Shown here one piece after another: positions 2,992 to 48,652 of a stretch of DNA of 64,000 bases; positions within the stretch are counted from its first letter, which is position 1, and each line of letters opens with the position of its first letter. Origin of the DNA: an uncultured candidatus Porisulfidus sp. Its GTDB lineage: Bacteria; Pseudomonadota; Gammaproteobacteria; Poriferisulfidales; Oxydemutatoraceae. The stretch covers positions 613,789 to 677,788 of the forward strand of contig OY843752.1 in NCBI GenBank assembly GCA_963693105.1. Reading direction: 5' to 3'. Made by a program: the position numbers and the translations under genes. The notes under the pieces were generated by a model, which ran no database searches, was not told the origin of the DNA, and saw nothing but the letters and a program-made list of their open reading frames with translations.

Positions 2992-3644
2992 TGCCCGATT
3001 TGTCCGTTGTCATCATAGACGACCACAAACTGTTCAGGGACGGCCTCGAAGCGTTGCTGACCAGGCGCGGCATCCAGGTGGCGGCGTCGCTGGGCGAAGG
3101 CCTGCGCGGTGTCGAACTGGCGCAGAAGGCGCAGCCCGATGTGGTGCTGCTGGACGTGCGCATGCCCGACGTGGACGGCATTGAAATACTGGAGATGCTG
3201 AAAGAGCAGGGGTTCGCCAACTCCGTTGTCATGCTGACCACCAGCGAAGACTGCGCCGATCTGGCCGGCGCGATGATACGCGGCGCCAAAGGTTATCTGA
3301 TGAAGGACATCGCGCCCGACGACCTGGTGGCCGCTTTGCACAGCGTGGTGGAAGGTGAGACCGTCATTGCGCCGTCGTTGCGGGAGGAATACGAGAAACT
3401 CGATCTGAGCAAACCGCCGCCGTCGCGCTGCGGCAAACTGGTCGGCAAACTGACTCCGCGCGAGCGCGAGGTGCTGGCGCTGCTGGTCGAGGGACAGAGC
3501 AACAAGATGATCGCCAAAGTCCTTAAAATTTCCGATGGCACCGTCAAACTGCACGTCAACACCATTCTCAGGAAATTCGGCGTGCACTCGCGTGTCGAAG
3601 CCGCGATGATCGAGGTCGAACGCAATATCCACAAAGGGCGCTGA
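2991..3644 (+). CDS. NarL/FixJ-family response regulator (REC + LuxR-type HTH)
   Basis: IIDDHKLFRDGL…DVVLLDVRMPDVDG receiver domain; C-terminal LTPREREVLALLVEGQSNKMIAKVL LuxR HTH; start overlaps kinase stop. Confidence 0.85.
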   Translation: MPDLSVVIIDDHKLFRDGLEALLTRRGIQVAASLGEGLRGVELAQKAQPDVVLLDVRMPDVDGIEILEMLKEQGFANSVVMLTTSEDCADLAGAMIRGAKGYLMKDIAPDDLVAALHSVVEGETVIAPSLREEYEKLDLSKPPPSRCGKLVGKLTPREREVLALLVEGQSNKMIAKVLKISDGTVKLHVNTILRKFGVHSRVEAAMIEVERNIHKGR

Positions 3645-3669
3645 GCCGCTCTCTCCGGCACACCATTCG

Positions 3670-4647
3670 ATGAAACGCCGTGTCAAAATCAACTTCAAGG
3701 GGTTCTGGGACTTAAGCCTGGAAGAGAATCCTTTCTACAAACTGCTGTCGAAGCGGTTTGATCTGGAGATTTCCGACGACCCGGATTTTTTGCTTTATAC
3801 CGACTGCTATCTCGAAAAAAAGAAACACCAGAATTGCGTCCGCATCTTCTACACGGGCGAGAACACAAGGCCTGATTTTTATGATTGTGATTACGCCTTC
3901 AGCTTTGATTTGCCGGTGACTGAAAGACACTACCGCCTGCCGCTGTACTGGCTCTATGCCGACTACAACAGGCTGAAAGAGCCGAAAGACCCGGACAGGA
4001 TTCTGGCGCAGAAAAGCGGATTCTGCAGTTTTTTATATTCCCATGCGACTCCTGAAAGGGAGGACTTTTTCAAACAGATGTTGTCCTACAAGATGATAGA
4101 TTCCGGCGGCAGGTTCCTTAATACGCTGGGTTATACGGTGCCCGTCGGGAGGGCGTCGGAAGCGGATTTTATACGGCGGTATAAATTCGCCATCGCTTTT
4201 GAGAATTCCTCCCACCCGGGTTACACGACGGAAAAGATTGTAAGCGCAATGCTTGCCAATACGGTGCCCATCTACTGGGGCAATCCGCAGGTGGCGCGCG
4301 ACTTCAACCCCAAATCGTTCATCAACTGCCATGATTACGACAACTTCAGCCAGGTCATCGAGAAGGTCATCGAAATAGACAATGACGACGATTTATACAA
4401 GTCCTTCCTTTCACAACCCTGGTTGAACGGCAACCGCGGCCTGGATAGTCTGACGGAAGAAAGCCTGTTGGCCCGGTTTGAGAAGATTTTTTCCGGGCCG
4501 GGAATCATACGATACCGGAAATCTCCCCGGTTGCCCGCTCTTCCCTTGTCGGTACGCGTCAACCGGATGATTCACGACAAGCTGATGCCCTACCGGTTTT
4601 TCGCCCCCATTATTCTGAGGCTGATCCGGTGGAAGAATCGCTGGTAG
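3670..4647 (+). CDS. glycosyltransferase family 10 (alpha-1,3-fucosyltransferase-like)
   Basis: motif YKFAIAFENS matches the GT10 signature YKF(Y/x)LAFENS; overall length and architecture FutA-like; gene looks markedly AT-richer than its neighbours (by eye). Confidence 0.6.
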   Translation: MKRRVKINFKGFWDLSLEENPFYKLLSKRFDLEISDDPDFLLYTDCYLEKKKHQNCVRIFYTGENTRPDFYDCDYAFSFDLPVTERHYRLPLYWLYADYNRLKEPKDPDRILAQKSGFCSFLYSHATPEREDFFKQMLSYKMIDSGGRFLNTLGYTVPVGRASEADFIRRYKFAIAFENSSHPGYTTEKIVSAMLANTVPIYWGNPQVARDFNPKSFINCHDYDNFSQVIEKVIEIDNDDDLYKSFLSQPWLNGNRGLDSLTEESLLARFEKIFSGPGIIRYRKSPRLPALPLSVRVNRMIHDKLMPYRFFAPIILRLIRWKNRW

Positions 4648-22306: not shown

Positions 22307-23678
22307 GCGCCGCGTTTACCTGCTCGGCATCTGCGGCACCTTCATGGCGGGGCTTGCGTGCCTCGCGCGTGAACTCGGCTGCGAGGTCGGCGGTTGCGAC
22401 AAGGGCGCCTGGCCGCCGATGAGCGAGCAGCTGGCGAAGCATCGCATCACGTTTGATACGTCGTGTGGCGCCGACACCGGCGGCGGTTACGACCGTTACA
22501 TCATCGGCAACGCGTTGTCGCGCGGCGACGAACTGGTCGAGGCGCTGCTCGACCAACGCCTGCCGGTGGTGTCCGGGCCGCAGTGGCTGTACGAGGCGGT
22601 TTTGCACCAGCGCCGTGTGCTGTGTGTCGCCGGCACGCACGGCAAGACCACGGCCAGCGCGATGCTCGCCTGGATACTGGAGTTCGCCGGCATGGCGCCG
22701 GGGTTTTTGATTGGCGGCGCGCCGGTTGATTTCGACACTTCGGCGCGCCTCGGCCAGTCCGATCTTTTCGTCATCGAGGGCGACGAATACGATACCGCCT
22801 TTTTCGACAAACGCTCGAAGTTTGTGCACTACCGGCCGCAGGTGCTGGTGCTGAACAATCTTGAATTCGACCACGCCGACATTTTCGACGACCTTGAAAA
22901 AATCAAGACGCAGTTTCACCACCTGTTGCGGACGCTGCCCGGCAGCGGCCTGGTCATCGCCCGCGCCGGTGACGCAAACCTGCGCTCGGTGCTGGAACGC
23001 GGCGTGTGGTCGGAGTTGCAGACGTTCGGCCTGCAGGGCGAGGACGCCGACTGGCAGGCGCGCGCGTCGGGCGCCGGCGGTTTCGAGGTGTACCACCTGG
23101 GGGAATACGCGGGCGCATGCGATTGGTCCATGCCCGGCGACCACAACATCGCCAACGCAATCGGCGCCGTGGCCGCGGCGTACCGGGTGGGCGTGCCAGT
23201 GGCCGCTTCGCTGGAAGCGCTGGGGCGGTTTCACGGCGTGCGCCGCCGCCTGGAGGTTTTCGCCGAGGCCGGCGGCGTGACAATCTACGACGATTTTGCC
23301 CACCACCCGACGGAAATTCGCGCGAGTCTCGGCGCGGTGCGCGCCCGTCTGGACGGGGGCAGATTGCTCGCGGTCTTTGAGCCGCGCTCGAACACGATCA
23401 GGGCGGGGCTGCACAACGACCATCTGGGCGCATCGTTTGACGAGGCCGACCGGCTTTTCTTCTACCGCCCGCCGACATTGGAATGGGACCCCGAGGCGAT
23501 GCTCGCGCGGGCCGGATCGCGCTGGTCGGTGCACGGCGAAATCGGGGAGTTGGTTGAAGCGGTGGCCGGCGAAGCCGCGGCGGGGGACAGCGTGGTCGTG
23601 ATGTCAAACGGCGACTTCGGCGGCGTCCACGGACGGCTGGAGGCGCGGTTGCAGGCAGGCGGCGTTTCGGCGGGGTGA
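22299..23678 (+). CDS. mpl: UDP-N-acetylmuramate:L-alanyl-gamma-D-glutamyl-meso-DAP ligase (murein peptide ligase)
   Basis: near-colinear similarity to E. coli Mpl (…LGICGTFMAGLA…GTHGKTTA…NNLEFDHADIFDDL…); the track ORF (22185) has a spurious N-terminal extension. Confidence 0.85.
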   Translation: MFERRVYLLGICGTFMAGLACLARELGCEVGGCDKGAWPPMSEQLAKHRITFDTSCGADTGGGYDRYIIGNALSRGDELVEALLDQRLPVVSGPQWLYEAVLHQRRVLCVAGTHGKTTASAMLAWILEFAGMAPGFLIGGAPVDFDTSARLGQSDLFVIEGDEYDTAFFDKRSKFVHYRPQVLVLNNLEFDHADIFDDLEKIKTQFHHLLRTLPGSGLVIARAGDANLRSVLERGVWSELQTFGLQGEDADWQARASGAGGFEVYHLGEYAGACDWSMPGDHNIANAIGAVAAAYRVGVPVAASLEALGRFHGVRRRLEVFAEAGGVTIYDDFAHHPTEIRASLGAVRARLDGGRLLAVFEPRSNTIRAGLHNDHLGASFDEADRLFFYRPPTLEWDPEAMLARAGSRWSVHGEIGELVEAVAGEAAAGDSVVVMSNGDFGGVHGRLEARLQAGGVSAG

Positions 23679-23698
23679 GTGACAGTTTTTGCGTGGTG

Positions 23699-24424
23699 TT
23701 ATGGCATATCCCTGAAACGATAGTCTTCCATGCTTTTGCCATGCCAGTCAGCCAGGTTGTCGTAATTGATAAATTGGACTCGCTTCTTTATCTCTGCGTA
23801 CTCAGTACGCGATATTTTTTCGTCAAATTGCCGCTTTCTGACTTGGCTGGCAGCAATATAAAATTTTGTGTTGAAGTCCTGTAACGCAATATATTTGGAC
23901 AATGCCCCAGTGAAATCAGTTGAGTGCTCAACCTCAAAGGCGGCATACGGCATCCTGCGCTCCTTGTGGAACCAGATAACATCTATCATTCGGGCCCGCC
24001 TCACTGTTTCTTCATAACTGAACTGATAAATATCCTGCAAATCCCGCACTTTCCCCAAAGTGGCGCCAAGAAAATCTTTGTTTTTATCCTGGTTGGGCAC
24101 AAATGTTTTGTAGCCTTGGGCCTTTCCAATTTGAAGTAACAGTCCCTGATAGAAAGAGTGGTCTCGTTCCTCTATCTTTTTAGCGGGCTGATTTTCATCT
24201 GTCCAATGGACAAGTTTTTCCCGGCAAGCGTTCAACCCCCACAATCCCGGCTTTATTCTGAAAAAATATCTTTGGTTCTGAACAATGCGGCGAATAGATG
24301 CATAAGGCGTCTTTGTTTTCCAGTTGCTGACATCCACTTCTTTGTTCAGCCGTCCTAATGTGGCAACGCCACCCAGTCTTTCCATCACTTGAATAACCTG
24401 ATCGTGCTGATTCATAATTATCAA
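23699..24424 (-). CDS. hypothetical protein with Mrr_N-like winged-helix N-terminus (…RIKPGLWGL) and a C-terminal region with a PD-(D/E)xK-like motif (IDVIWF…AFEVEH)
   Basis: located in an AT-rich island, 4-nt overlap with the upstream mrr-like gene; domain assignment is by motif resemblance only. Confidence 0.4.
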   Translation of the reverse strand: MIIMNQHDQVIQVMERLGGVATLGRLNKEVDVSNWKTKTPYASIRRIVQNQRYFFRIKPGLWGLNACREKLVHWTDENQPAKKIEERDHSFYQGLLLQIGKAQGYKTFVPNQDKNKDFLGATLGKVRDLQDIYQFSYEETVRRARMIDVIWFHKERRMPYAAFEVEHSTDFTGALSKYIALQDFNTKFYIAASQVRKRQFDEKISRTEYAEIKKRVQFINYDNLADWHGKSMEDYRFRDMP

Positions 24425-25353
24425 TCCCCTTTTGGCATGGTATCGAGGAAAGCCACTAGTTTGATGGGCAGCAACCGCCGGCGTTTCTCAGGGATTTTTT
24501 CGTAATGCGCGACCCAGAGATCAAAGAAGCGTTTGGCGTCGATCAACACAAGATAGCGTTGTCCCCGGCGCGCTTCTTTATCAGCCTCTCTCGTGAATCC
24601 GCCGATAGAGACATAAAGACCTGTTTCCCGGTCTTTCAGAGTGTCCCGGAAGGAACGAATTGCATCAACGCTAAGCGCATCTTGCCTCCGTTTCACTTGA
24701 ACCTTGATGCGTTTTCCAGAGACACCAAGCGAATCGGTAGTGGCGTGAATGTCAATACCTCCATCCGGTCCGGGAGGCGCAACCCACTGCACGTGATGTC
24801 CCATCCCTTCAAGAAGGCCGGCTACTACCTCCTGAAAATCGAGCGGTTTCATTTCAGCCAGATAGTTCTCGACTTCCGCCCAGGCGTTTTCTTCAGATTC
24901 TTCTAGTGTTGCCGACGATGTTTCCGTGCCGTCTTGCTCAGGGTCACCGTCGGCGTTGTTTCCTTTCGGCGGCTGATCCTTTTTCCATTGTTTAAATCCC
25001 TCTATCGATTTTTTATGGAATTGCTCCGGGTCAGGGGTGCATTTATAGGCTTCTTTCCCTGCGTCCGTGAGAGACCACTGGCCACGTTCCTTGATTAGCC
25101 AGCCAGCCTTTGTGTAACTAATCGTTGCGAATCGGACCACCACTTCATAGCGACGAGTGCCGGGACGATTTGGGAAATCCCTTTTTTCAAAGGATGTCGG
25201 GGGAACCTCTGTTGCTAAAAGAGCGAGGACTTTTCTGGAAGGAAGGCCCTCCGGCTCATCGTGCAAAATCTTGAAAACACCCCGGACCAGTGTTCCGTTG
25301 CGCTCATGCGTGACTTCAGCCATCTTAATTCTCCTGTTTTTCGGTTGTTCCAA
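24421..25353 (-). CDS. mrr: Mrr-family type IV restriction endonuclease (Mrr_N winged helix + Mrr_cat)
   Basis: C-terminal …GPDGGIDIHATTDSLGVSGKRIKVQVKRR… matches the Mrr catalytic motif (GDGGIDG…QCKR); N-terminal …YTKAGWLIKERGQWSLTDAG is Mrr_N-like; alternative start at 25323 (MAEVTHE…). Confidence 0.75.
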   Translation of the reverse strand: MEQPKNRRIKMAEVTHERNGTLVRGVFKILHDEPEGLPSRKVLALLATEVPPTSFEKRDFPNRPGTRRYEVVVRFATISYTKAGWLIKERGQWSLTDAGKEAYKCTPDPEQFHKKSIEGFKQWKKDQPPKGNNADGDPEQDGTETSSATLEESEENAWAEVENYLAEMKPLDFQEVVAGLLEGMGHHVQWVAPPGPDGGIDIHATTDSLGVSGKRIKVQVKRRQDALSVDAIRSFRDTLKDRETGLYVSIGGFTREADKEARRGQRYLVLIDAKRFFDLWVAHYEKIPEKRRRLLPIKLVAFLDTMPKGD

Positions 25354-25537
25354 ATAGATTCCACCTTAAACTCAGCGAGGTTACATTTCCCATTGTCGGT
25401 AATGGAATGCTGAAAGGTGAATACTAAGAATCATCGAGTCTATGCCGCTTTGCCAAGTGAGACAAGGTGTGTGTAGTTTCTCAATCGCCATGTTTATCTG
25501 GTACTGATACACTGTTCCCCCAACTGGACAAACGCCC

Positions 25538-27245: not shown

Positions 27246-27734
27246 CTACCCGGCTTCTTGTTCTTTGTTTTTTCTGCTACGTCTGTGACCACTAATGAGT
27301 TGGGCGGCGAGACCAACCAATGGTGCGGCAAGAAGCGCGATGCCTGCAACCGCGTAGCCTATGAAAGCCATGAAGGCGCCTCCTGAGATGACCATGCCGG
27401 AAATTAAGAGTGTGTACAGTTGTCCACGCTTTTCAAAATTGATGGCACTCTTGAGTGCGAGACTTTCCTTATCGTGTCTATGGTTTTGCTCTTTCTCAGC
27501 CATTGCCATAATCCTGTTTGGGAATTCCGCATCTATTTTTTGATAACCTTCCAACTGGGCAGCTGGAGGCAATGGTCCCGAAAAATAAGCAGAAGCGATG
27601 GTCACGGAGGATTCCCCTTCACTCCGGGCCAGTGCTTCTTTCAGGGCTGCCCGACGGTCGGCAGGGAGTTGGTCAATGAGTTCAGGAAGTGCATCAGGCT
27701 CCGAGAGGCCTGATTTTTCATTGTCTTCGGGCAC
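27246..27734 (-). CDS. DUF2335-like membrane protein
   Basis: …YFSGPLPPAAQLEGY…MAEKEQNHRH… followed by two TM helices; AT-rich gene. Confidence 0.45.
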   Translation of the reverse strand: MPEDNEKSGLSEPDALPELIDQLPADRRAALKEALARSEGESSVTIASAYFSGPLPPAAQLEGYQKIDAEFPNRIMAMAEKEQNHRHDKESLALKSAINFEKRGQLYTLLISGMVISGGAFMAFIGYAVAGIALLAAPLVGLAAQLISGHRRSRKNKEQEAG

Positions 27735-28101
27735 GCCTGTTCTCGATTGCTTGTGCTTCTTTCAGAAATGCCAGACAGAAATCTTCAAAGACATTCTGCC
27801 AGTCCGAGCGGATGGCTTTGTCTGGGTTGGATTCTATGCCGGCGTCTCGAAGATAGTCGTGTTGTGAGACTGGATGCATTAAACGGAAAGAGGACAGTAT
27901 TTCTGTGACAGAGGGCAATTGACTTCCATACCGCTGTCTTTTTGCCAGGAGGCGGTCGAGCTCTTTATTGTAGATTTCCAGCTTTTTGTTGGCATCATCT
28001 TCCGGGTCGGGGAATGAGAAGAGATCCAACTGTTTGTCCGATGCCGATTGAGCCACATGGCGGACAAGAAAATCCACAAGTTTGTCGGTGTTTTCTGTCA
28101 T
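27718..28101 (-). CDS. hypothetical protein (AT-rich; start taken at MTENTDK)
   Basis: ORF only, 16-nt overlap with downstream DUF2335 gene. Confidence 0.3.
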   Translation of the reverse strand: MTENTDKLVDFLVRHVAQSASDKQLDLFSFPDPEDDANKKLEIYNKELDRLLAKRQRYGSQLPSVTEILSSFRLMHPVSQHDYLRDAGIESNPDKAIRSDWQNVFEDFCLAFLKEAQAIENRRARRQ

Positions 28102-28248
28102 GATAGTAGAGCAATATTGTCGCCTGAAAGAACGATATTGCAACCAAGCTGATTATACCGCCAATCATCGCGTCTGTGTATAATAACAACTTGATGCGTC
28201 CGGGGTGGAACTGCGGGATGGGGCGCAAATCATAATGGTTGTATTGTC

Positions 28249-46432: not shown

Positions 46433-48652
46433 ATGGCATCAAAATCGAAACGGAAGTCCGGAAAAGGACGCAAAAGAAAGCCGGTGCAACAGCCCGCCGC
46501 CGCGGGCGCGTCCAACGGCTCACCGCAAGAAAACCGTTCGGCAAACGGGTCGGCGTCGGACCGTCGCCCGAACCCGGTGCAAAACAACAAGACAGCGACG
46601 CACACTGTCAGCACCCATGCCCTGATGAGCGATGCCAGCATTCCCTACTGCTGGGCGTTCGGCATCTTTTTCGGCTTGACGGCAATTGTTTCACCCTACG
46701 GCCAGACGGTCAACGGTTTCAATCCTGATCTCCACATGGCCGGCTACCTGCAGGTGGGCGGGCTGGTGTTCATTCTGGTTTACCTGTTTCACTATCTGCA
46801 GCGCGCGCACAATGTGCTTTATATGCCGCGCACTCCCATGATATGGGTGGTATTCGCGCTTTATCTGTGGATGTTGATATCGCTGTTGTGGGCGCACAAC
46901 TCCTACGAGGCTTTTGTGAAGATTCTCGACTGGGGCGCCGCGATTTGTATTTTCGTGCTTTCCCTGCTGCTGATTCGGGACAGCCGCACGTTTTTCCCCG
47001 TTCTGCTGTGTTTTTACCTGGGCGGTCTTGCCGTTTCCCTGCTCGGAGTGGGCCAGTACCTGTTGGCGGTGGACTGGGTTCAGCAGCATCAGGCGCCGGC
47101 AGCCACGTTTGGCAATAAAAACATGGCGGGTGAGTACCTTGTGCTGGTGGCGCCGCTGGGTTTTTGTTTCCTTCTGAACAGCCGCCACAAGATCGCGCCA
47201 TGGCTTTACGCGTTGAGCGGTTCTTTTATCATCGCCTACCTGTTTTACGGTCGCACCCGCGCTTCGTGGATTTCCTTCATAGCCGAAGTGTTGCTTCTGG
47301 CGGGATTTTTCCTGTATTTCAAATTCAGGCACGGTTACAAGCCGCACTGGAACCGCAACAAAACGTATGCGTTTATCGCCTCGCTTGTTTTCCTCTTTGC
47401 GCTTGTGAACATGCATCCGGGCATGTTCAGCGACGGGACTCTCGGTATTGACTCGAGAATCAATCCGTCTGCGGGAACGACCAAGGCGGAATCACTCACC
47501 GGAACGTTGAAAGCCGCTCTGGGAGGGTTCGAGTCGAGCCGGAGTCAGCGCTACACCATGTGGCTCAACTCGCTTGCAATGTACAAGGACCACTGGTTGC
47601 TGGGAACGGGAATCGGCAACTGGATGGTTTATTACCCGGCCTATCAGATTGCCGTGGAAGTTGACCATATGCTGACCGGCAACCTGTACCATATCAATGC
47701 GCACAATGATTACATAGAATTTTTGTCCGAACTCGGTCTTGTCGGCGGTCTCATGATGCTCGTGCTGGTCTTCTTCATATTGCGGACGATTGGCCGTGTT
47801 GCGGCGAGTCGCGGTATCTCGGATGAAAATCGCGTCTTCGGCATTGCGGCGGGTATCAGTATTCTGGGAATCAGCGCCAACGCCACTTTCAGTTTCCCCC
47901 TCCAGCAGCCCGTGACGATTGCGATGTTCCTGTTCTATCTGGCCTTGATTGTCGTGGTTTCCAACACCCTGAACGAAGACGACCGGGACATGTATTCGCT
48001 TCGATTGCCGGCCCCGATTTACAAAATTTTCTTTATTGCGCTGATTGGCGTGGCGGCGACCTTTTTGTCTTTCATGCACTATCAGTGGTACTTGTCGGAG
48101 GCTCATTACCGCGTGGCGTCGGCTTCGATGAGTCTGGGCAGATACAAAGTGATGGACCAGTACGGCAGAATGGCATTAGAAGAAAACCCGATGCGCACGT
48201 ACCTGAATATCTTCCCGGCCACGTACTACGCGAAACAGTCAAACTATGCAAAAGCCGTCCACCATTTCGAGAAATTGCGCGCCGACTATCCCTGGCGCAT
48301 AGAGATTATGCAGAATCTGGGCGCGTCCTACTTGTACTCGGGCAGGCACGATCAGGCAAGGGAAGTGTTTAATCTGTGGGATAGTATGCAGCCTCACTCC
48401 AGAGGTTTACTCAAGGCCCACGGAATGATGCTGGCGCATGTCGGAGACAGGGAAGCGGCTATCGAGAGGTTGTCCCGGGCAGGAGAGCTGTTCCGGGAAG
48501 CCGTGCAGGACTCGATAGCAAGAGGCGACCAGAAACAGGCGCGTCGCCGGCAAACCAAACTGGAGCAGATTTACCAGGTACTTGCCAGTCTCGGTGTTCG
48601 GCCCGATTCCGGCGCCGCGAGTCCGGCGGCCGCAAAGCAGCCGAGCGGTTAG
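46433..48652 (+). CDS. O-antigen ligase (Wzy_C) domain polytopic membrane protein with C-terminal TPR repeats
   Basis: about 12 TM helices, …YYPAYQ…HAHNDYIEFLSELGLVGG… Wzy_C signature, C-terminal soluble TPR-like domain; Lys/Arg-rich N-terminus. Confidence 0.6.
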   Translation: MASKSKRKSGKGRKRKPVQQPAAAGASNGSPQENRSANGSASDRRPNPVQNNKTATHTVSTHALMSDASIPYCWAFGIFFGLTAIVSPYGQTVNGFNPDLHMAGYLQVGGLVFILVYLFHYLQRAHNVLYMPRTPMIWVVFALYLWMLISLLWAHNSYEAFVKILDWGAAICIFVLSLLLIRDSRTFFPVLLCFYLGGLAVSLLGVGQYLLAVDWVQQHQAPAATFGNKNMAGEYLVLVAPLGFCFLLNSRHKIAPWLYALSGSFIIAYLFYGRTRASWISFIAEVLLLAGFFLYFKFRHGYKPHWNRNKTYAFIASLVFLFALVNMHPGMFSDGTLGIDSRINPSAGTTKAESLTGTLKAALGGFESSRSQRYTMWLNSLAMYKDHWLLGTGIGNWMVYYPAYQIAVEVDHMLTGNLYHINAHNDYIEFLSELGLVGGLMMLVLVFFILRTIGRVAASRGISDENRVFGIAAGISILGISANATFSFPLQQPVTIAMFLFYLALIVVVSNTLNEDDRDMYSLRLPAPIYKIFFIALIGVAATFLSFMHYQWYLSEAHYRVASASMSLGRYKVMDQYGRMALEENPMRTYLNIFPATYYAKQSNYAKAVHHFEKLRADYPWRIEIMQNLGASYLYSGRHDQAREVFNLWDSMQPHSRGLLKAHGMMLAHVGDREAAIERLSRAGELFREAVQDSIARGDQKQARRRQTKLEQIYQVLASLGVRPDSGAASPAAAKQPSG

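Follow-up and report, generated by a model that had tools for sequence, protein, structure and literature searches.

The 64-kb window analyzed here (the whole stretch of 64,000 nucleotides from an uncultured candidatus Porisulfidus sp., from which all coordinates are counted) contains an AT-rich islet between mpl and trx that carries two genes for predicted nucleases, an Mrr-family enzyme of 300 residues (gene 1) and a restriction-type protein of 238 residues (gene 2). An earlier reading, made from the sequence alone, had judged this segment by eye to be AT-richer than the flanking chromosome, and calculation bore this out: the GC content of positions 23679-25537 is 0.479, the lowest of the whole 64 kb, whereas non-overlapping windows of equal length have 0.616 ± 0.032 (z = -4.36). 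GC at third codon positions is 0.50-0.51 in both islet genes versus 0.81-0.83 in mpl and trx, and a GC-skew plot, which that reading had proposed, switches to negative inside the segment. Both genes are intact and on the minus strand, and all of the motifs that had been quoted for them are present, GPDGGIDI...KVQVKRR in the 300-residue protein (310 residues in the earlier reading) and RIKPGLWGL and IDVIWF...AFEVEH in the 238-residue protein (previously 241 residues). The overlap of the two genes was not upheld; TTG starts had been taken, and ATG starts are likelier. The preferred start of gene 1 is the ATG at 25323, with AGGAGA 6 nt upstream, and that of gene 2 is the ATG at 24415, with GGGGA ∼10 nt upstream; these positions agree with the gene calls of a closely related strain (L001) and with the N termini of homologues. 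With these starts, 5 nt separate the Mrr stop codon (24421-24423) from the ATG of gene 2. The intergenic region at 25324-25537 is presumed to be the promoter region of a two-gene transcript. A strong match to the sigma-70 consensus was not found in that region, and neither terminator enrichment nor a convincing sigma-70 promoter was found at the islet.

The product of gene 1 was readily assigned. In a local Pfam scan, the Mrr_cat domain (PF04471) was matched with E = 1.5e-21 (77 bits, cutoff 21), and the Mrr_N domain with E = 1.6e-5 and a score slightly under its cutoff (25.4 versus 29.5 bits). The protein P0241, which is 100% identical to the gene 1 product, carries precomputed tags for PF14338 and PF04471; PF14338 is found on most homologues, and homologues bear the name "Mrr restriction system protein." PADLOC was run on both islet proteins and gave PDC-S02 (E = 1.5e-36) and mREase_IV (E = 1.2e-11) for gene 1 and REase_II (E = 9.5e-7) for gene 2. 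Mechanistic literature on PDC-S02 was not found, the label occurring as a PADLOC candidate in surveys only. The two Mrr domains, the PADLOC matches, and the PD...QVK motif support the proposal in the sequence-only reading of an Mrr-family type IV enzyme, and by these signatures gene 1 is predicted to encode a canonical, type IV-like member of that family.

The structure of the gene 2 protein was predicted with AlphaFold2 from 42 sequences, and the model was confident (predicted local distance difference test score 93.7, predicted template modeling score 0.91). On the basis of this model, the protein consists of a winged helix followed by a real PD-(D/E)xK nuclease fold formed on the IDVIWF...FEVEH residues, in agreement with the winged-helix N terminus and the nuclease-like C-terminal half that had been suspected from the letters. 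That reading had named an absent nuclease fold together with an ordinary GC content as grounds for giving it up; a nuclease fold and an outlying GC content were found instead. Its description of the protein as Mrr_N-like proved incorrect. The N-terminal domain has no Mrr_N match and no BLASTP similarity to the N-terminal domain of the neighboring Mrr, and its sole recurrent Pfam signal is HARE-HTH, which falls below threshold in the window copy (E = 0.043) and likewise in 16 of 42 family members; one homologue is named "HTH HARE-type domain-containing protein" in one source. The homologues number 1557, and among the matches listed all 120 carry the tag PF27126 (NmeDI_C), as does P0001, a protein 99% identical to that of gene 2; NmeDI_C was assigned through these precomputed tags, the model being absent from the local Pfam copy. 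A search of the 238-residue protein against NCBIfam gave no match. Besides four residues of the nuclease domain listed in Table 1, Q109-D110-x-N112 is invariant in the family, and every family-invariant residue is kept in the window copy.

The two genes do not form the two-component module that had been suggested, as the pair is absent outside L001 and the divergence of its members is uncoupled. In our survey of gene 2, one genome per species was scanned and 80 loci were fetched. When the window Mrr was used as a tblastn query, L001 was the only match among 83 gene 2 loci, and L001 is of the same species, its sequence being 98.5% identical to that of the window across 16.7 kb. Of the other Mrr homologues, the next-closest three that were looked up stand alone (75%, 68%, and 66% identity), and at the DNA level these loci match the window in the Mrr open reading frame (ORF) only, homology stopping at its ends. 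The Mrr homologues with 66-68% identity (L088 6001-6888 and L089 2479-3369) are single-gene insertions between dnaK and dnaJ, in a chaperone operon that is normally conserved. Mismatches per 100 nt between the window and L001 amount to 7.3 in mrr (11 in its 5′ half), 5.1 in the intergenic region upstream of it, 0.56 in gene 2, and ∼1 in the flanks, which places the divergences of mrr and gene 2 ∼13-fold apart. The two Mrr proteins (L001 7090-7995) are 89% identical; the proportion of synonymous differences (pS) is 0.12 overall, and the ratio of the nonsynonymous proportion to it (pN/pS) reaches 0.77 for the winged helix, with 0.39 for the linker and 0.12 for the catalytic domain. The accumulation of mismatches in mrr relative to gene 2 indicates that the Mrr allele was exchanged or diversified independently of its neighbor, and the pattern suggests allele exchange or diversifying selection in the reader domain. 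We conclude that Mrr and gene 2 are not a conserved pair but independent single-gene nucleases in a chance operon-like arrangement.

The islet occupies a site of variable content. Three relatives (L084, L085, and L086, with Mpl proteins 93%, 79%, and 77% identical) keep the synteny upstream of mpl and have different cargo directly after it, homology to the window stopping at 23632-23664, within the last mpl codons. The cargo of L084 (7516-12769) includes DUF4007, a BrxC/PglY-like gene, and PAPS_reduct, which we take to be an Ssp/Dnd-like phosphorothioate module; that of L085 (7454-12975) includes a RadC-D12 methyltransferase (MTase), RE_AlwI, IS605 TnpB, and an N6_N4 MTase; and that of L086 (7410 onward) consists of unrelated genes. 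In L085, the IS605 TnpB is inserted between the genes of an AlwI-family restriction-modification (R-M) system. The site just downstream of mpl is, therefore, a variable defense/cargo hotspot in this gammaproteobacterial lineage. No tRNAs were found between 15 and 35 kb of the window, and at the islet there was no integrase, no terminal repeat, and no significant flanking direct or inverted repeat that would hint at att sites or transposon ends. In 78 of 82 loci, gene 2 or its homologue has a lower GC content than the host locus, as is typical of mobile defense genes, and the distribution of the family is patchy and cross-phylum. The outlying GC content of the islet and the differing cargo after mpl in relatives support the horizontal acquisition that had been proposed for it.

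The gene 2 family is present in at least 568 species of bacteria and archaea. No homologue was found in the phage collection, and the plasmids yielded one full-length member, which is solitary (L090, 46% identity). This gene, annotated as hypothetical, lies at 244995-245723 of the haloarchaeal megaplasmid pSTJ001 of Halobacterium hubeiense with no MTase listed nearby, and it shows that the family has spread across domains. A gene on the same strand begins the neighborhood ≤30 nt upstream of the gene 2 homologue (hereafter R) in 22 loci, and the recurrent partners are adenine-N6 MTases of two classes, a beta-class N6_N4 enzyme with DPPY (L010) and a D12/Dam-class enzyme (L039, L040, L078, and L036), at gaps of 0-5 nt. 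An intact MTase is followed by an intact R at 0-5 nt in L010, L039, L040, and L078. The D12 partner has its best match in DpnM (M1.DpnII, a GATC methylase; E = 5e-51) and keeps the equivalents of EcoDam K9, L122, R124, P134, and Y138; the beta-class partner is nearest to CcrM. R proteins linked to one class share 72-75% identity with those linked to the other, and the recognition helix, ASIRRIVQ, does not vary, that of the window included, which speaks for one common specificity. In the host flanks of the three loci with intact MTase and R that were long enough, observed/expected GATC counts are 3/26, 3/14, and 1/19. HARE-HTH domains fused to endonucleases have been described as the restriction enzymes of N6A-modifying R-M systems (PMC4738411). 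A GANTC target, considered on account of the resemblance of the beta-class MTase to CcrM, was set behind GATC: GANTC is only mildly low in host DNA (in the window, three of the four pentamers have observed/expected ratios of 0.68-0.80 and GAATC is at expectation), and the R proteins linked to DpnM-like enzymes are 72-75% identical to those linked to beta-class enzymes. Judged from these sequence comparisons, GATC is most probably the target. In Patescibacteria (CPR), a gene of the MutH/Sau3AI family (Pfam E = 6.4e-11), a GATC-associated type of nuclease, lies just downstream of an orphan R (L044 5587-6102), and similar ORFs occur at L017 8828-9277 and L020 1649-1921.

An intact MTase stands next to R in only ∼10% of the family loci. 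No intact adjacent MTase is present in ∼85-90% of the loci, whereas at least five loci have an intact coupled one. At ∼18 loci, all that is left of the beta-class MTase is its N-terminal 45-137 residues, abutting the start of R. Although most of these remnants have one junction in common, several are joined at other points, which means that the MTase was deleted more than once. Where such a fragment takes the form of a micro-ORF of 70-90 residues, it has kept its start codon and DPPY and ends at the start of R. We rejected the possibility that the remnants are halves of a split MTase gene, as the ORFs downstream of R are unrelated (MutH-like, NIF3, metabolic). The ratio of nonsynonymous to synonymous substitution rates (dN/dS) of R is 0.04-0.21 in MTase-less lineages, and that of the remnant is 0.02-0.27, with dS mostly saturated. 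A dN/dS below 0.3 is unexpected for a dead remnant, and the micro-ORF could serve translational coupling or encode a new small protein. R is intact in 77 of 82 copies, and the other 5 have one in-frame stop or frameshift. The nuclease of this family usually outlives the MTase, the reverse of the usual order of R-M decay. One locus (L058) has an intact D12 MTase and an R with a premature stop, that is, the usual R-first decay as opposed to the far commoner M-first loss in the family. The clade of the window (window, L001, L002, and L003) has no trace of an MTase and only conservative substitutions relative to the rest. Given the low dN/dS in MTase-less lineages and the 77 intact copies, the orphan copy in the window is predicted to be functional.

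The reading that we favor, with moderate confidence, is that gene 2 encodes an orphan, probably GATC-type, methylation-sensitive restriction nuclease whose protecting MTase would be unlinked, and that the islet holds two independent nucleases at a hotspot. It builds on the folds, the family membership, the non-conservation of the pair, the MTase linkage elsewhere, the hotspot, and the purifying selection. In the proposed mechanism, the winged helix of Mrr would read modified DNA and its PD...QxK domain would cut it, so that Mrr would attack foreign-modified DNA. The HARE-HTH-type winged helix of gene 2 would read a short site, and its NmeDI_C domain, with a BamHI-like D...ExE center, would cut, possibly at a fixed distance from the site by analogy with R.NmeDI, which cleaves 12/7 outside RCCGGY on both sides (PMC2095814). 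Ancestrally, the gene 2 family probably belonged to type II R-M operons, alongside an adenine-N6 MTase, the target most probably being GATC and N6-methyladenine (m6A) probably blocking cleavage. An unlinked Dam-like MTase would presumably protect the chromosome in trans, so that the nuclease is tolerated and could restrict unmethylated incoming DNA.

Several points weigh against this interpretation. No D12- or beta-class MTase was detected by tblastn in the 64-kb window, and the gene upstream of R is mrr. GATC is observed 139 times in the host DNA of the window (islet excluded) where 298 are expected (observed/expected 0.47), leaving 139 sites. The GATC specificity draws on similarity of the MTases, site avoidance at only three loci, and the roles ascribed to the EcoDam-equivalent residues, and no biochemically characterized member of the exact gene 2 family was found in the literature. 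The MTase-free fraction of ∼85-90% equals the figure from which Helbrecht et al. argued that winged-helix fusions are of type IV (87%, PMC11037411), and the Aravind group has proposed a modification-discriminating role for HARE-HTH.

These last two points lead to the alternative that the 238-residue protein acts by itself as a modification-dependent (type IV) nuclease, in which HARE-HTH would bind m6A or another mark and NmeDI_C would cut nearby; the islet would then hold two type IV enzymes with different ranges. Such a role would fit the predominance of solitary or MTase-less loci, the recurrent shortening of the upstream MTase at loci where R remained under purifying selection, the proposed recognition of modified DNA by HARE-HTH, and the place of the window gene beside a type IV enzyme, in a window that yielded no MTase. 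The modification-dependent restriction endonucleases that are winged-helix fusions are alike in this respect, some of them standing beside inactivated m6A or N4-methylcytosine MTases, and dead MTases have been seen beside DpnI-like genes (Helbrecht et al., PMC11037411). Nevertheless, in several loci an intact adenine MTase is translationally coupled to an intact R, with 72-75% R identity across the two MTase classes, and an m6A-dependent enzyme of matching specificity would be suicidal there. The recognition helix and catalytic residues are, moreover, alike in MTase-linked and orphan members, and the substitutions in the window clade are all conservative. We consider a type IV role for gene 2 unlikely.

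Somewhat more doubtful still is that gene 2 is a tolerated relic or a domesticated non-defense nuclease, such as a nickase for MutH-like strand discrimination or a regulator that binds DNA, and is silent or harmless to its host. Its orphan status, the MutH-family neighbor in some CPR loci, and the 5 of 82 copies with a stop or frameshift would accord with this, but the invariant catalytic residues and the low dN/dS tell against it, and the patchy cross-phylum spread, the low GC content relative to the host locus (78 of 82 copies), and the position of the window copy inside a defense hotspot are those of a traveling defense gene. The view that Mrr and the 238-residue protein co-operate, for example as sensor and effector or as a heteromeric nuclease, is very improbable and already largely refuted by context: the 5-nt spacer and shared strand suggest co-transcription, L001 has the same arrangement, and both proteins combine a winged helix with PD-(D/E)xK, but the pair is confined to one species (none at the other R loci, none at the three Mrr loci looked up), each gene travels alone with uncoupled strain divergence, and each protein is complete with its own reader and cutter.

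Both islet genes are of known kinds, Mrr on the one hand and the HARE-HTH-nuclease fusions of adenine R-M systems, with a Pfam-defined nuclease domain, on the other. To specialists, only the recurrent loss of the MTase with retention of the nuclease and a conserved remnant micro-ORF may be of interest. We entertain, as a speculative and rather improbable extension of the orphan-nuclease reading, that these features record a functional switch, in which the nuclease repeatedly escaped its MTase, leaving a conserved DPPY micro-ORF of 75-90 residues or, as in the window, nothing, with strong purifying selection on the nuclease across phyla. If this were true, it would document an evolutionary route from a type II R-M system to a stand-alone defense nuclease, by a switch to modification-dependent cutting, by strict dependence on methylation from a resident orphan Dam enzyme, or by control through an MTase-derived micro-protein, and the operon of Mrr plus orphan R in the window would be one endpoint of that route; current concepts are otherwise unchanged. 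For annotation, the gain in this genome is a small defense island together with a hotspot of recombination on the downstream side of mpl and, more widely, a large uncharacterized family of restriction nucleases whose window member could prove useful as a compact nuclease guided by a winged helix.

Table 1. Features of the mpl-trx islet and of gene 2 (R) family loci (window coordinates unless a locus is named).
Feature	Position	Strand	Basis or remark
AT-rich islet	23679..25537		spans mpl stop (23678) to trx start (25538)
Mrr-family restriction endonuclease (gene 1), 300 aa	24421..25323	-	Pfam, PADLOC, homologue names; stop 24421-24423
Mrr_N domain of gene 1	~25045-25287	-	Pfam
Mrr_cat domain of gene 1	~24517-24861	-	Pfam; PD at 24763-24768, QVK at 24691-24699
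AT-rich divergent intergenic region, 214 bp, Mrr start to trx start	25324..25537		position only
5-nt spacer, Mrr stop to ATG of gene 2	24416..24420	-	operon-like spacing; read from sequence, same in L001 gene calls
Predicted restriction-type nuclease, orphan (gene 2), 238 aa	23699..24415	-	HARE-HTH-like winged helix plus NmeDI_C; stop 23699-23701
N-terminal winged helix of gene 2 (HARE-HTH-like), residues 1-72	24200..24415	-	recognition helix ASIRRIVQ, wing RIKPGLWGL
C-terminal NmeDI_C / PD-(D/E)xK domain of gene 2, residues 78-238	23702..24184	-	
Invariant residues of gene 2 nuclease domain	D145 23981-23983; E161 23933-23935; E163 23927-23929; K174 23894-23896	-	
Micro-ORF loci	L012, L016, L017, L020, L030, L042, L044, L055, L071, and others		~80-270 nt upstream of R start
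R copies with stop or frameshift	L058 7138-8720; L007 8001-8710; L031; L059; L073		standard genetic code assumed

Other features of the window were noted in passing. A second AT-rich islet on the minus strand, at 27246-28143 between hemL and nqrA (GC 0.47-0.52), holds a DUF2335 membrane protein (162-residue ORF, Pfam E = 4.9e-13) and a 141-residue ORF without a family match; it is a second mismatch hotspot relative to L001, with 27 differences in 27600-27899 against a background of ∼3 per 300 nt. Segments at ∼3300-3900, 47000-47700, and 62600-63200 have a GC content of ∼0.50-0.53, versus a window average of 0.61, and may be other foreign insertions. Among palindromes, the observed/expected ratios in the 64 kb minus the islet are 0.17 for CTAG, 0.46 for AGCT, 0.47 for GATC, and 0.68 for GGCC.

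Comparison with known systems places the two genes in different company. Gene 1 shares with E. coli Mrr and its family the Mrr_N plus Mrr_cat architecture, the PD...QxK motif, and the lack of a cognate MTase, and at 300 residues it is of the same size as the E. coli enzyme, which has ∼304; it differs in that its N-terminal reader is unusually variable between two near-identical strains. Gene 2 shares with R.NmeDI of Neisseria meningitidis, specific for RCCGGY, the C-terminal NmeDI_C nuclease domain (by Pfam tag), and it matches positions 176-286 of the PADLOC type II nuclease model, the 351 positions of which equal the length of R.NmeDI. Unlike R.NmeDI, with its ∼175-residue N-terminal domain and 351 residues, gene 2 has a 72-residue HARE-HTH-like winged helix and 238 residues; the partners of its family are adenine-N6 MTases and the window copy is linked to none, whereas the MTase of the NmeDI system is presumably a C5 enzyme. 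By this analogy, distal cutting by the gene 2 nuclease is plausible. The likeness to the GATC R-M systems of the DpnII/MboI type (alpha-class DpnM, beta-class DpnA, and R) resides in the DpnM-like D12 and beta-class DPPY MTases upstream of R and in the strong avoidance of GATC where the system is intact; the nuclease, however, is unrelated, with no PF04556 signal, and the best score of the beta-class partner is with CcrM, of the GANTC type, which makes the GATC specificity provisional. The resemblance of D...ExE to the BamHI/BglII center is one of the active site only, with no sequence homology. The same architecture as in gene 2, with operonic adenine-N6 MTases in some genomes, characterizes the HARE-HTH-endonuclease fusions of N6A R-M systems (Iyer et al. 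2016, PMC4738411; Aravind & Iyer 2012), which these papers describe computationally only; the window copy differs from them in being an orphan with a sub-threshold HARE-HTH score. DpnI and the m6A-dependent winged-helix fusion enzymes (Helbrecht et al. 2024, PMC11037411) resemble gene 2 in combining a winged-helix reader with a nuclease, in being mostly stand-alone, and in lying, in some cases, beside inactivated MTases, whereas in the gene 2 family the domain order is reversed, the winged helix is of a HARE-HTH-like subtype, and intact coupled MTases also occur.

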